Positions 3,131 to 21,284 of a DNA stretch of 64,000 bases are shown here, piece after piece (position 1 is the first letter of the stretch; each line of letters starts with the position of its first letter). Position numbers and translations under genes: made by a program. Where the stretch lies: NCBI RefSeq assembly GCF_003334815.1, contig NZ_QOWO01000013.1; one strand, given 5' to 3'. The notes beneath the pieces are model-generated. The model saw only the letters and a list, made by a program, of their open reading frames with translations, was not told the DNA's origin and searched no databases. The DNA comes from Escherichia coli. GTDB lineage: Bacteria; Pseudomonadota; Gammaproteobacteria; Enterobacterales; Enterobacteriaceae.

Positions 3131-4315
3131 TTAAACGGGCTGCCCCTGATGCGACATCCGCGTCGCCAGCGGCAGCCAGCACAGCACGATCAACAATCCC
3201 ATTAAGGTCATCAACAACCCCAGGCTGCCCTGACCGGTTTGCGGCAACATCGCAGAGAGCGACGCCAGCACGCCGGAACCAATGTTTTGCAGACCGCCGA
3301 CCAGCGCGCCAGCCGTGCCCGCCAGGAAGGGGAACGGCTCCATCGCGCCGCTGGTCGCCAGCGGAAACAGCATCCCGGCACCGAAAAAGAACAGCGCGGC
3401 GGGAACGAGCAGCGTCCAGACATTCATCACGCCAAACCAGTCGGGGATCCACATCAGCAAGCCAGCCAGCAGGCAGCAGATAACCGACTGCCACATTAAC
3501 GTGGAGAAGCGTTTATTGGGACGTCCGGCAAACCATGCGCCAAAAAACGCTGCCGGAATCGGCAGAATAAACAAAATACTGACCGTCATACTGCTCAGCC
3601 CTAACACCGCGCCCATCAGCACGCCGGAGCAGGCTTCAAAGGCGGCAATCCCGGCCAGACCGCCAATCAGCATCAGCAAATAACAGTTAAAACCGCTGTT
3701 ACCGAAAAGCGTTTTATAACTGGTAAGCAGGCGCGTGCGCGGTGCATCGACCGGACGCGTTTCCGGCATCCAGCGGGCCATACTGAAGGTCACACCAGCA
3801 CAAAGAACCAACAAAAAGAGATAACAGGCGCGCCAGTTCCACATCGTATCCAGCAGACCGCCGATTAGCGGTGCGAGCAACGGACTGACGAGAATCCCCA
3901 TGTTTAACAGGCTGTTAGCATGGCGCAACTGTGTCCGTTCATATAAATCTCGCGGTAAAGTACGCGCCATTACGCCGCCAACGCCGGTGCCCATCCCCTG
4001 CATCGCGCTGGCGGCAATCAACACCGTCAAACTGGAGGTCGTGACCGCGACCAGCGTTGCCAGCATAAAAATGGACATTCCGACGAGGATCACCGGTCGG
4101 CGGCCCACGCGGTCGGAAATCGGGCCATAAAACAGCTGTGAGACACCGTAAGTCAGCAGATAAGCGCCCATTACGCTCTGCACCGCCCCTTCACGGACGT
4201 TGAGATCGCGCGCCATATCGGCAATAGCTGGAATATAAATGGCTTGCGCCATCTGACCGACGGCCACGAGTAATACCAACATCAATAACAAATTGACGTT
4301 TCTTTGCCTTTTCAT
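3131..4315 (-). CDS. emrD: MFS multidrug efflux transporter EmrD
   Basis: 394 aa from MKRQRNVNLL...; the ORF track's MIMKRQ start is 2 codons longer. Confidence 0.9.
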   Translation of the reverse strand: MKRQRNVNLLLMLVLLVAVGQMAQAIYIPAIADMARDLNVREGAVQSVMGAYLLTYGVSQLFYGPISDRVGRRPVILVGMSIFMLATLVAVTTSSLTVLIAASAMQGMGTGVGGVMARTLPRDLYERTQLRHANSLLNMGILVSPLLAPLIGGLLDTMWNWRACYLFLLVLCAGVTFSMARWMPETRPVDAPRTRLLTSYKTLFGNSGFNCYLLMLIGGLAGIAAFEACSGVLMGAVLGLSSMTVSILFILPIPAAFFGAWFAGRPNKRFSTLMWQSVICCLLAGLLMWIPDWFGVMNVWTLLVPAALFFFGAGMLFPLATSGAMEPFPFLAGTAGALVGGLQNIGSGVLASLSAMLPQTGQGSLGLLMTLMGLLIVLCWLPLATRMSHQGQPV

Positions 4316-16497: not shown

Positions 16498-17688
16498 ATG
16501 AGTGAATTTATTGCCGAAAACCGCGGCGCGGATGCCATCACCCGACCGAACTGGTCAGCCGTTTTCTCGGTGGCGTTTTGTGTCGCCTGTCTGATTATCG
16601 TTGAGTTTTTGCCCGTCAGTTTGTTGACGCCAATGGCCCAGGATTTAGGCATTTCGGAAGGGGTTGCCGGGCAATCGGTGACCGTGACCGCCTTTGTGGC
16701 AATGTTTGCCAGTTTGTTTATTACCCAGACAATTCAGGCTACTGACCGCCGCTACGTTGTTATTTTGTTTGCCGTTTTGCTGACGCTCTCCTGCTTGCTG
16801 GTTTCCTTTGCTAACTCATTCAGTTTGCTTTTAATCGGTCGTGCCTGTCTGGGGCTGGCGCTGGGCGGGTTCTGGGCGATGTCGGCGTCGCTGACCATGC
16901 GTCTGGTGCCGCCGCGTACGGTGCCGAAGGCGCTGTCGGTGATCTTCGGCGCGGTTTCTATTGCGCTGGTGATTGCCGCGCCGTTGGGCAGTTTTTTAGG
17001 CGAGCTTATCGGTTGGCGCAATGTCTTTAATGCGGCGGCGGTGATGGGCGTGCTGTGTATTTTCTGGATTATCAAATCATTGCCTTCACTGCCAGGCGAA
17101 CCCTCGCATCAGAAACAAAATACTTTCCGCTTATTACAACGTCCGGGTGTGATGGCAGGGATGATCGCCATCTTCATGTCTTTCGCCGGGCAGTTTGCTT
17201 TCTTCACGTATATTCGCCCGGTGTATATGAACCTGGCGGGATTCGGCGTGGATGGCTTAACGCTGGTGCTGTTGAGTTTTGGTATCGCCAGCTTTATTGG
17301 TACGTCGCTTTCGTCGTTCATTCTTAAACGTTCGGTAAAACTGGCCTTAGCAGGCGCGCCGTTAATACTGGCTGTGAGTGCGTTGGTACTGACGTTGTGG
17401 GGAAGCGATAAAATCGTTGCTACCGGCGTGGCGATTATCTGGGGGCTAACTTTTGCATTGGTTCCCGTCGGCTGGTCAACGTGGATCACCCGCTCGCTGG
17501 CCGATCAGGCAGAAAAAGCCGGGTCTATTCAGGTGGCGGTTATTCAGCTTGCTAATACCTGTGGCGCGGCAATCGGCGGTTATGCGCTGGATAATATTGG
17601 TCTGACTTCGCCGTTGATGTTGTCCGGCACATTGATGTTGCTGACTGCATTGTTGGTTACTGCAAAGGTGAAAATGAAGAAATCCTGA
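16498..17688 (+). CDS. nepI: Purine ribonucleoside efflux pump NepI (MFS)
   Basis: 396 aa from [10 protein letters not shown]... Confidence 0.85.
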
Positions 17689-17728
17689 TATCAGGTAAAG
17701 AAGCGTTGGTCAGTAGTTGTTGCTGTTC

Positions 17729-18022
17729 TTACATATCCGGGCATTCTACCTTACCCAACGCTTCCCAATAATTGCTCTGATTATTACGTTCCATCGCCAC
17801 GATGGCCTCGCGTATATGTTGTTTATTGTTTTCATCTGACAACATTAACTTTTCCCACGCTTCATCTGATAATGACGCCTGTGGCGTGCAAATTTTACGT
17901 AAATCTTGTAATACCGTGGTTTTCTCTTTTGCGGACTGCAGTGAGCTAAAAGGCGACTCGGCGTATACGATGCCTGGCATAGCGAAAAAAGTGAAAATAA
18001 GCAGTAGTGTCGTTGGTTTCAT
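17729..18022 (-). CDS. yicS: Secreted protein of unknown function, 97 aa
   Basis: N-terminal signal peptide MKPTTLLLIFTFFAMPGIVYA. Confidence 0.75.
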   Translation of the reverse strand: MKPTTLLLIFTFFAMPGIVYAESPFSSLQSAKEKTTVLQDLRKICTPQASLSDEAWEKLMLSDENNKQHIREAIVAMERNNQSNYWEALGKVECPDM

Positions 18023-18243
18023 GGATTCAACCTTTTACAAATGTGTATCGAATGAAGCATAAGTGTAGTTTGCTTTCATCGCTCTCATCATGCTGTACGA
18101 AACGCGCTTGCGTGGTCAGTAAGAAGTGCCAGACTTTATATTCCACTTTTATTCCTTTTTATTCTTATCGATAGCGTTTCGTTTTTTAAACCGCAGCGAC
18201 CTTACCGCTATAGTCAGGTAATCATTAATAAAAGGATAAAAAA

Positions 18244-19062
18244 ATGAAACTGACAACACATCATCTACGGACAGGGGCCGCATTATTGCTGGCCGGAATT
18301 CTGCTGGCAGGTTGCGACCAGAGTAGCAGCGATGCAAAACACATTAAAGTTGGCGTTATAAATGGCGCAGAACAAGATGTCGCGGAAGTCGCTAAAAAGG
18401 TGGCAAAAGAGAAATATGGCCTCGATGTTGAACTGGTAGGATTTAGCGGTTCGTTGCTACCGAACGATGCGACAAATCATGGCGAACTTGATGCGAATGT
18501 CTTCCAGCATCGACCCTTTCTTGAACAAGATAATCAGGCGCATGGTTATAAACTGGTAGCGGTGGGAAATACGTTTGTCTTCCCTATGGCGGGTTATTCC
18601 AAAAAAATCAAAACCGTGGCGCAAATAAAAGAAGGCGCGACAGTGGCGATCCCCAACGACCCGACCAACCTTGGTCGCGCACTTTTACTGTTGCAAAAAG
18701 AGAAGCTAATTACTCTGAAAGAGGGAAAAGGGTTATTACCTACCGCGCTGGATATAACCGATAATCCTCGTCATTTGCAGATTATGGAACTCGAGGGGGC
18801 GCAGCTCCCGCGCGTACTGGATGATCCCAAAGTTGATGTAGCGATTATCAGCACCACTTACATTCAGCAGACCGGGCTTTCTCCGGTGCACGACAGCGTA
18901 TTTATTGAAGATAAGAATTCGCCGTATGTGAATATTTTGGTGGCACGGGAAGATAATAAGAATGCAGAAAACGTGAAGGAATTTCTGCAATCTTATCAAT
19001 CACCCGAAGTCGCTAAAGCGGCAGAAACCATTTTTAACGGTGGCGCGGTGCCTGGCTGGTAA
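18244..19062 (+). CDS. nlpA: Lipoprotein 28 (MetQ/NlpA family)
   Basis: 272 aa; lipobox LLAGC. Confidence 0.9.
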   Translation: MKLTTHHLRTGAALLLAGILLAGCDQSSSDAKHIKVGVINGAEQDVAEVAKKVAKEKYGLDVELVGFSGSLLPNDATNHGELDANVFQHRPFLEQDNQAHGYKLVAVGNTFVFPMAGYSKKIKTVAQIKEGATVAIPNDPTNLGRALLLLQKEKLITLKEGKGLLPTALDITDNPRHLQIMELEGAQLPRVLDDPKVDVAIISTTYIQQTGLSPVHDSVFIEDKNSPYVNILVAREDNKNAENVKEFLQSYQSPEVAKAAETIFNGGAVPGW

Positions 19063-19065
19063 TTC

Positions 19066-19989
19066 TCACTTATGCCGCGCCGGACGATTTATTTTTCTGG
19101 CGCGGCGACGGGAATCCATTGAAATCAAAATCACCGATGACAGAATCAGCAGCGTTCCCAGCCAGTCCGGTAATGTGAACGTGATCCCCAGCAACAGCAA
19201 AGAGAGTAGCGCGCTACTTAATGGTTCTGCACAGCTCAAAATGCTGGCTTTTGGACCGCCAATTAATTGTGCTCCTTTCAGGTACAGACTAAATGTCAGG
19301 GACGTACCAATGACCACCAAATAAAAAAACGCCAGAATCAAACTGCCGTTAACGACAAAGTTTGTTCCTTGTCTGGCATAAAAAGGCAACAGAATCAGAC
19401 CGCCAATCAGCATACTCCAGCCGACGACTGGTAACGTGCCATAGCGGGCAATTAGCGTTGAGGGATAGGTGGTATAGAATGCAGCAGCAAATGCCGAGGC
19501 AATGCCCCAGAACAACGCGGCAGGAGAGATCGATAATGACGTCGGATTACCGTGTGTCACCAATAAAAAAGTCCCGACCAGCGATGTCAAAATAGCGCAG
19601 AAAACCAGAATGCCCGGGCGCGATTTACGCACCAGTGAGAACCAGGCGACGATAATCGTCGGTGAGAGGAATTGCAGCACCGTTGCCGTGGCTGCGTTCG
19701 ATTTTTCGATGGTTAGCAAAAAAGTGAGCTGTACAGTTAGCGCGCCAACCACGGAAAAAATCAGCAGGCTAATGGCATCTTTATGATTGTTAATAATAGA
19801 AAAGATTTTATCGCCATGAACAAATGACAGCGTCAGTAGAATCAAACCGGCGAATATCAAACGCGTCATAGTCAAAAACTGCGACGACATCTGGCTTTGC
19901 TCCATGATGTATTGCGCGCAGACCCCTGAACTTCCCCACAACACGGCGGCAATCAGAACGTTCAGCATCCCCTTTCTGGTGGAACCCAT
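19066..19989 (-). CDS. yicL: EamA/DMT-family transporter
   Basis: 307 aa, about 10 TM segments; its stop lies 3 nt from the nlpA stop. Confidence 0.85.
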
Positions 19990-20099
19990 TTTTCCCTCTG
20001 CATACTGTTTTGTCGTTTATGTATGCAGGCATGATAGCAAAAATGGCGAGGATGGCTCTGTTTGCGCCACGCCGATTTTTCTTAGCCCAGACTGGTGAG

Positions 20100-21284
20100 C
20101 TAAATATCTTTAATAAACAGCAGGCAAATCATCGCAATACCCAACATCCCTATCGCCAGCCAGAACAACGCATGGTAGCTCCAGATTTCAACCATAATTC
20201 CGTCAACAGAGCCGGCGATAATCCAGCCGACGCGTGAAGTATTTGCATATAACGTTGTCGCAGAGCCTATTTTTTCAGGCATCAAGTCCTGAAAATAAAG
20301 CATGCCGATACCACAGAGAATACCAAGGAAGATGGCATTAAGAATTTGCAATTCCAGCTCAACCGCCGGAGTCGTCGCCATGAGTACGCTGGCGTAAAAA
20401 CACATTCCACTCACGATAGCAATGAGCATTAATAGTCGCTTGCCAATACGTTTCATGTAATAGCCTGCGATTAACATCATCGGAATTTCCAGACCGGCAG
20501 CGATACCAATCATTTCTCCAGCCAGTTTATCGGTTAGATGCAGTTCATCAATAATAAATAGCGGCATATTTATCATGTAGAGATTATTCGCCGCCCACAT
20601 CATTGAACAGACCACAAAAAGTAGCCGCGTATCCCGCTTCCTGTGGGTGGAGGGTAAAATTTCTACGGGTTGGGTAACGACAGGAATATTTCTTTGTATT
20701 GATGGCAAAAACAACCAGACTATCAGTCCGCAAACAACAAATGCGATGGCAGCGGTGAGATACATCACTTTAAAACTAAATCCCATTGCCAGTTCATAAG
20801 CGAGCGGTGGCCCGATAACCCAGGCAAGCGAGATCTGAGCACGTAAAAATGTACTGAACATGACCGTCTCACGGCCTGTTCTGTCGGCGTGTTCACGGGC
20901 GAGGGCGAACATTTGCGGGTTTGCGGTGGAAGCAAAACTACTCAGAAGTACGCCCGTTGAGAGGAGAATGAAGTAGTTGCGATTCCACGCAAAAAGCGTG
21001 CAGGCCAGCACTCCAAATAAGCAACATAGCAGAATCAGTAATTTACGGTCGCCTTGTTTATCGGAGTGCCTTGCCAGAAATTGACTGACCAGAATTCCCA
21101 TAATAGCGCTACCGGTGAAGAAAAAACCTACCATTATAGGACGGGCTTTCAGTTCATCTGCGAGGAATATACTTAGGGTAGGAGTCTGAAGAGCGCCCGC
21201 AATACCCGTCAGAAAGGCGACAAGTAAAAATGCCGCGGCAGTGAGATCAAGTATTTTTGATGGAGTGGTAGCCGTTTTTTGCAT
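20100..21284 (-). CDS. setC: Sugar efflux transporter C (MFS, SET family)
   Basis: 394 aa. Confidence 0.85.
   Translation of the reverse strand: MQKTATTPSKILDLTAAAFLLVAFLTGIAGALQTPTLSIFLADELKARPIMVGFFFTGSAIMGILVSQFLARHSDKQGDRKLLILLCCLFGVLACTLFAWNRNYFILLSTGVLLSSFASTANPQMFALAREHADRTGRETVMFSTFLRAQISLAWVIGPPLAYELAMGFSFKVMYLTAAIAFVVCGLIVWLFLPSIQRNIPVVTQPVEILPSTHRKRDTRLLFVVCSMMWAANNLYMINMPLFIIDELHLTDKLAGEMIGIAAGLEIPMMLIAGYYMKRIGKRLLMLIAIVSGMCFYASVLMATTPAVELELQILNAIFLGILCGIGMLYFQDLMPEKIGSATTLYANTSRVGWIIAGSVDGIMVEIWSYHALFWLAIGMLGIAMICLLFIKDI

Follow-up and report, generated by a model that had tools for sequence, protein, structure and literature searches.

A conserved stem-loop within the 3′ end of yicL at the convergent nlpA–yicL junction of Escherichia coli

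Introduction

Rho-dependent transcripts of Escherichia coli typically end at stable stem-loops that lack a U-tract, Rho having terminated diffusely downstream and the RNA having been trimmed back by PNPase and RNase II (Dar & Sorek 2018, PMC6061677). Overlapping bidirectional terminators (Ju et al. 2019; Wang et al. 2022) consist of one hairpin that is common to two convergent genes and is weak as an intrinsic terminator whichever way it is read. Convergent excludons (Sesto et al. 2013; ExcludonFinder, PMC12288877) have very short spacers and overlapping transcription, and the behaviour that defines them is mutually exclusive expression.

The junction between the convergent genes nlpA and yicL shares features with each of these systems. 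Like members of the Dar & Sorek class (PMC6061677; Peters et al. model), it has a GC-rich stem-loop without a U-tract just after the nlpA stop codon and shows bicyclomycin-sensitive termination a few hundred nucleotides downstream on the yicL-sense strand, but the stem-loop is inside the coding sequence of the opposing gene, in E. coli also within the last 12 codons of yicL itself, and Rho dependence is seen from the yicL-sense strand alone. As in overlapping bidirectional terminators, a single hairpin is common to both genes and would be a weak intrinsic terminator both ways, but nlpA and yicL seem weakly expressed, and some transcription in the yicL sense goes past the hairpin and is Rho-dependent. 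The very short spacer and the overlapping transcription are reminiscent of convergent excludons, and the pair yicL–yicU is in the excludome list, whereas the nlpA–yicL pair itself is absent from the list of ExcludonFinder.

Results

The nlpA–yicL junction in E. coli

The window, by which we mean the whole stretch of 64,000 nucleotides that was analysed, is from E. coli K-12 and is 100% identical to the BW25113, W3110 and MG1655 records. Positions in it (w) are related to MG1655 positions (m) by w = 3858237 − m, a conversion that is valid because the yicU ORF translates correctly under it. An earlier note on this DNA had placed the stop codons of nlpA and yicL 3 nt apart, and that spacing is exact (Table 1). 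The RefSeq ends of both genes are identical in the K-12 records with 100% identity, and the RefSeq gap is unchanged at 3 nt in four divergent E. coli lineages. A 96-nt query covering the junction had matches of ≥95% identity in 5363 of the 5426 complete E. coli genomes; every match that was sampled, from the top of the ranking to the bottom, spans 96 nt, so there are no indels in the sampled rows. The junction is fixed across E. coli.

Table 1. Features of the nlpA–yicL junction, in window positions unless MG1655 is named
Feature	Position	Strand	Details	Basis
nlpA CDS	18244..19062	+	lipoprotein-28, 272 aa; stop TAA 19060-19062	sequence and ORF listing
yicL CDS	19066..19989	-	EamA-type transporter, 307 aa in E. 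coli; stop TGA 19068-19066 (TCA 19066-19068 on the + strand)	stop by direct reading
Spacer between the stops	19063..19065		TTC, 3 nt	direct reading
nlpA in MG1655	3839175-3839993	-		RefSeq
yicL in MG1655	3838248-3839171	+		RefSeq
Segment in last nlpA codons (G-A-V)	19042..19050	+	GGCGCGGUG; pairs with central arm 19073-19081, giving H1	
Hairpin H2	19073..19107		arms 19073-19084 and 19096-19107; loop 19085-19095 (11 nt)	folding
E. coli-specific yicL extension	19066..19089	-	codons 301-307 (NRPARHK) and stop	absent in 80/80 other species
1-nt deletion and one substitution in H2 loop	19089..19090			comparison with E. whittamii, Escherichia sp. E1V33 and CUPF09
Sigma-70-like match, just past the hairpin	19119..19146	+	TTGAAA-16-CAGAAT with TG	consensus match only
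yicU (b4797)	19536..19595	+	19-aa small ORF, antisense within yicL; 474 nt downstream of nlpA stop	RefSeq

Tight spacing of this sort is a common arrangement in E. coli, no more than chance would give. In a small sample of three 50-kb regions of MG1655 (150 kb in total), 7 of the 22 convergent CDS pairs (32%) overlapped or were separated by ≤3 nt: yadE–panD and tcyP–ydjO have gaps of 3 nt, ycaM–ycaN has a gap of 0 nt, and amiD–ybjS (−4 nt), ybjD–ybjX (−4 nt), nudG–ynjH (−35 nt) and cho–ves (−41 nt) overlap. The most stable local hairpin of other sampled tight pairs is inside the 3′ coding end of one partner (yadE, ydjO, ynjF, ves, ybjX). Four pairs, yadE–panD, tcyP–ydjO, ynjE–ynjF and cho–ves, are like nlpA–yicL in combining an embedded hairpin with a gap of 3–8 nt or an overlap.

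A hairpin in the last codons of yicL

Folding of the junction places a hairpin, H2, wholly within yicL, where it takes up codons 295–306 and starts 10 nt past the nlpA stop codon. Its 12-bp stem is GC-rich and includes two G·U pairs on the + strand. Folded alone, H2 has a predicted free energy of −23.9 kcal/mol as nlpA-sense RNA and −18.7 as yicL-sense RNA. A 56-nt context in the nlpA sense folds to −27.0 (z = −5.5), and 0 of 200 shuffled sequences folded as well. Against a background made up of the best 45-nt fold in each random 165-nt E. coli region (mean −16.9, s.d. 3.5, 5th percentile −23.5), the H2 region, at −24.8, is in the lowest ~5%. The H2 palindrome is unique within the 64 kb of the window, where 0 chance matches are expected. 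The earlier note had held that 3 nt leave no room for a terminator. That argument fails here, since a conserved 12-bp GC hairpin sits within the last codons of yicL, and a stem-loop needs no intergenic DNA, so a tight gap does not imply that a terminator element is missing.

Several familiar identities for this part of the junction were considered and rejected. As a canonical intrinsic terminator, H2 has the GC-rich stem-loop but not the 7–8-nt U-tract: immediately past the stem come GACGGGAAUCC on the + strand and AUAAGUGAGAAU on the − strand, and a scan for consensus terminators found no site at the nlpA–yicL junction. Nor is H2 a REP/BIME palindrome, given its uniqueness in the window, the lack of any core match to the REP consensus at the junction and the lack of any match in an Rfam search of positions 18000–20200 at E ≤ 1. 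A U-rich loop, AUUUAUUUUU, which follows a small upstream helix, was discarded as an intrinsic terminator for nlpA: its U-run does not abut a stem and is unconserved, the corresponding loops in Citrobacter being GC-rich. The composition downstream of H2, inspected for the C>G bias that can indicate a Rho site, is unremarkable and not decisive.

H2 is present in Escherichia, Citrobacter and Intestinirhabdus, and only at loci with nlpA as the convergent neighbour. At loci that lack nlpA, the hairpins downstream of yicL are unrelated and often of the canonical U-tract type. In the 17 rows of our alignment that are not E. coli, the left arm is 98% identical though noncoding, and the right arm, which encodes RRRAR or RRAR, is 98.5% identical; identity falls to 69% in the spacer flanking the left arm and to 70% in the loop. 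Coding (RRRAR) also constrains the right arm. Across the alignment of 20 sequences, standard pairs fill 89.9% of the H2 pair cells, against 32–68% in registers slid by 1–3 columns. No compensatory double changes were found in the 12 pairs of these 20 sequences, a covariation test that is uninformative because the arms are nearly invariant, and the conservation of H2 is at the level of primary sequence only. The two G·U pairs hold only on the + strand. In 17 of the 20 sequences H2 folds more stably as nlpA-sense RNA (mean −23.6 versus −20.2), a count that, like the alignment as a whole, comes from species that are phylogenetically non-independent.

A third segment, in the last codons of nlpA, can pair with the left arm of H2, which is the central arm of the three (Table 1). 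The resulting alternative hairpin, H1, encloses the nlpA stop codon. In K-12, H2 dominates (−23.9 versus −16.7 for H1). Across species, the two are about equal in both the nlpA sense (H1 −22.6, H2 −23.5) and the yicL sense (H1 −22.0, H2 −20.4), and in Citrobacter H1 is as strong as H2. In Enterobacter sp. RIT418 (locus L032), nlpA is away from the yicL 3′ end and CCGCGCC is still found after the nlpA stop codon, where it forms H1; the central arm therefore travels with nlpA. The central arm could pair with either the nlpA end, as H1, or yicL, as H2, and selection may act on either.

Origin of the 3-nt spacer

The comparison took in yicL orthologues from 80 species of Enterobacteriaceae, with one locus for each. 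YicL has 300–303 residues in other species, with one exception of 304 residues among the 80 loci, which belongs to an Escherichia lineage whose DNA downstream of yicL is different. The 307-residue form is confined to E. coli among the species examined. Outside E. coli, nlpA also converges on yicL in two further Escherichia (E. whittamii and Escherichia sp. E1V33), in Intestinirhabdus and in about 14 species of Citrobacter; in these relatives YicL ends in ...SRRRAR-x-x* after 300 residues, its stop codon is within the hairpin loop, and the nlpA and yicL stop codons are 25–28 nt apart.

The difference comes down to a 1-nt deletion and a substitution in the loop of H2 (Table 1). Read in the yicL sense, AAA ATG TAA TCG has become AAA ATA AAT CGT, the ancestral stop at codon 301 has been lost, and the shifted frame stays open across the second arm (INRPARHK) as far as the TGA that is 3 nt from the nlpA stop codon. 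The short YicL is the ancestral form, because all outgroups carry it. When E. coli genomes were queried with the ancestral version, there was a single gap-free match, to strain CUPF09. Across nlpA and yicL this strain shares only 85% identity with K-12, and it therefore represents a divergent Escherichia lineage; PGAP labels its ancestral-type, 300-residue yicL a "frameshifted" pseudogene.

On this comparative sequence evidence, the 3-nt gap is the by-product of a recent, E. coli-specific frameshift at an otherwise ordinary convergent junction. nlpA–yicL differs from the other tight pairs in that this evolutionary route, from a spacer of 25–28 nt to one of 3 through a 1-nt loop deletion, is visible. 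The RNA elements predate the frameshift, so the 3-nt spacing probably changes little. Judging by the size of the ribosome footprint, a ribosome terminating on yicL would occlude the hairpin in the ancestral state and in the derived one.

Transcription across the junction

A bicyclomycin-sensitive Rho termination region in the yicL sense, antisense to nlpA, has been reported at MG1655 3839587 (+) (Adams et al. 2021, PMC7815308, Supp. file 2). Its Rho score is 2.47 (p = 2.6e-7), and the reads upstream and downstream number 107 and 54 without bicyclomycin and 451 and 563 with it (PMC7815308). The coordinate converts to ~18650 (−), inside nlpA and 416 nt past the yicL stop codon, and is the low-resolution peak of a statistic computed over stretches of 800 nt, the downstream one extending to the start of yicS, which has the same orientation. 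The location of this region inside nlpA indicates that at least some polymerases transcribing in the yicL sense get past the junction before Rho stops them. The same supplementary file of PMC7815308 has no entry for a Rho region on the nlpA-sense strand, and the Term-seq tables of that study contain no 3′ end near the junction (MG1655 38388xx–38393xx) and none assigned to nlpA or yicL. The supplements of TERMITe have no entry for either gene, those of SMRT-Cappable-seq have no end for either gene, and the Cappable-seq TSS tables have nothing in the interval.

On the opposite strand, yicU is among the small ORFs that were validated by western blot (PMC8921622), so a translated + strand RNA exists over yicL. 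The sigma-70-like match just past the hairpin (Table 1) is a possible candidate for an independent start of the yicU transcript. In the ExcludonFinder list, yicL–yicU is one of 165 convergent pairs whose transcription overlaps in at least 50% of 58 RNA-seq samples (PMC12288877, Table 1). Together with the Rho region beyond the yicL stop codon, this listing and the translation of yicU inside yicL bear out the claim of the earlier note that the two transcripts overlap at their 3′ ends.

Discussion

We favour a reading, to which we give a probability of roughly 0.55, in which a stem-loop without a U-tract marks the mRNA ends at this junction, with Rho acting downstream and exonucleases trimming back. 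The junction's functional 3′ element would be H2, whose fold is stable from either strand, somewhat more so in the nlpA sense. Because it has no U-tract, H2 most likely works as a pause site and as a barrier to 3′ exonucleases, setting stable ends for the mRNAs; efficient intrinsic termination at it is unlikely. RNA polymerase would be released further downstream, inside the opposing gene, via Rho, and PNPase or RNase II would then trim the RNA back to the stem. With release inside the opposing gene, the primary transcripts would overlap by tens to hundreds of nucleotides, and the mature transcripts by about the length of the hairpin. The parts of this scheme that we infer are the barrier and pause role of H2, the trimming back and the action of Rho on the nlpA-sense strand.

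The same hairpin could instead be an overlapping bidirectional terminator of the collision type, pausing both polymerases so that head-on collision, together with a trailing polymerase, brings about release that does not depend on Rho. We consider this unlikely. H2 does lie where two convergent genes meet, folds stably from either strand and lacks a strong U-tract, which fits the description of the class (Wang et al. 2022, bioRxiv 10.1101/2022.10.23.513370), but collision requires frequent transcription from both sides and its efficiency is lower for lowly expressed pairs (bioRxiv 10.1101/2022.10.23.513370), whereas the read counts here are low, at 107 reads per 800 nt. The Rho-dependent region downstream in the yicL sense indicates that some polymerases pass H2, which argues against full Rho independence, and the Term-seq tables of PMC7815308 hold no ends for the two genes. 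The reading that follows on from the earlier note's suggestion of mutual antisense interference, a functional excludon, is one we hold to be distinctly improbable. It would have effectively no termination at the junction and a long 3′ UTR overlap, through which nlpA and yicL, with yicU, repress each other by interference and RNase III cleavage of the duplex. The overlapping transcription of yicL and yicU in at least half of the RNA-seq samples (PMC12288877), the extension of yicL-sense RNA ~400 nt into nlpA and the translation of yicU from the nlpA strand within yicL are consistent with it, but regulation does not follow from overlap, yicU might be transcribed from a promoter of its own, for which the consensus match is a candidate, and the conserved hairpin argues that the junction itself sets the 3′ ends. 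The 3-nt spacing from which the excludon view arose is, moreover, common in E. coli and here the by-product of a recent frameshift, before which the same RNA elements were present with a spacer of 25–28 nt.

It is also very doubtful that the hairpin has no function, the outer arms being kept for coding (RRRAR, GAV), the central arm as a DNA palindrome, as a protein site or by hitch-hiking, and the junction being leaky. The count of 0 compensatory changes, the lack of 3′ ends mapped at H2 in the Term-seq tables of PMC7815308 and the lack of an Rfam family would all agree with a functionless hairpin. Against this, outside E. coli the central arm encodes no protein, yet it is 98% identical, with immediate flanks at ~69%, and it keeps its complementarity to coding segments on both sides; the G·U positions hold on the nlpA-sense strand, and comparable embedded hairpins are found at other tight junctions.

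Beyond the reading in which H2 and Rho define the mRNA ends, the arrangement allows a speculation to which we give very little credence: that the frameshift made the yicL mRNA non-stop or nearly so or, more generally, that the three segments (19042–50, 19073–84 and 19096–107) form a translation-sensing switch. If so, the frameshift would have put the yicL stop codon just 3′ of the gene's own protective hairpin, the hairpin-trimmed yicL mRNA would have its stop codon at or beyond its extreme 3′ end, and rescue by tmRNA or ArfA would limit YicL output. In such a switch, a ribosome terminating on one gene would hide that gene's own arm, leaving the central arm to pair with the arm of the opposing gene, and the stable 3′ end of each mRNA would require transcription into its neighbour.

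Overall, nlpA–yicL looks like an ordinary convergent junction with an embedded 3′ stem-loop, of a kind that is routine in E. coli. Overlapping transcription at the locus has already been catalogued, and the import for biology at large is small. For annotation, one consequence is that PGAP calls the ancestral 300-residue yicL of a divergent Escherichia strain a pseudogene. The junction also serves as a worked example of how the absence of intergenic space is not the absence of a terminator element, and as a case of datable micro-evolution in which deletion of 1 nt from a hairpin loop added seven residues to a transporter and reduced a spacer of 25–28 nt to 3, with the RNA elements unchanged.

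Complementary segments at the nlpA–yicL junction

Three GC-rich, mutually complementary segments lie where the convergent genes nlpA and yicL meet, one in the last nlpA codons (19042-19050), one in the spacer (19073-19084) and one in the last yicL codons (19096-19107). Together they permit two mutually exclusive hairpins, each of which surrounds the ancestral stop codon of one of the two genes. The central segment is also present 3′ of nlpA in one Enterobacter species where nlpA is located away from the yicL 3′ end. In the fold of the K-12 + strand, an outer 6-bp helix (AUUCUC/GGGAAU; 19062-19067 with 19110-19115) is added, in which the 3-nt spacer, along with part of each stop codon, pairs with sequence 3′ of the hairpin; judging from the aligned E. 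whittamii and Citrobacter sequences, this helix does not look conserved.

Other features of the region are collected in the table. The small ORF yicU lies antisense within yicL, 474 nt 3′ of the nlpA stop, and is preceded by GGAG in the window sequence; its transcript may arise either by read-through from nlpA or from a promoter of its own. The promoter-like match is antisense to yicL and directly 3′ of the hairpin, in a region where the density of such matches is that expected by chance. The neighbouring pair nepI–yicS is also among the published E. coli excludons (PMC12288877, Table 1).

Features near the nlpA–yicL junction, in window coordinates
Feature	Coordinates	Strand	Description
yicU (b4797)	19536-19595	+	19-aa small ORF, western-validated
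Sigma-70-like match	19119-19146	+	TTGAAA, 16 nt, CAGAAT, TG upstream; consensus match only
nepI (+) / yicS (-)	17688-17729	convergent	40-nt spacer

Variation in other Escherichia genomes

PGAP calls yicL of CUPF09, a strain labelled E. coli, a 'frameshifted' pseudogene (locus L087, 1522-2446), a call that we reject, as the frame is the ancestral one of 300 aa (…RRRARKM*). Since CUPF09 is only ~85% identical to K-12 across nlpA and yicL, it probably represents a divergent Escherichia lineage.

In two Escherichia lineages, represented by the yicL loci L006 (~1310-1345) and L012 (~3895-3950), nlpA is absent 3′ of yicL. L006 is near-identical to K-12 until the hairpin-loop position, where similarity stops, giving a 304-aa YicL; L012, which is more diverged, has a 300-aa YicL. 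The two have a related 3′ flank in common (…CTGG(T/C)ACTTCTTACTGA…). The end of similarity at the loop in L006 and the related flank in L012 suggest that the hairpin-loop position is an indel boundary.

The hairpin itself is interrupted in E. coli Iso00041 (L005, 1899-2596), in which an IS1A lies within it immediately 3′ of GCCGCGCCGG, at about window position 19084, splitting the arms apart and altering the yicL tail (CDS of 921 nt). This strain is a natural mutant with a disrupted hairpin.
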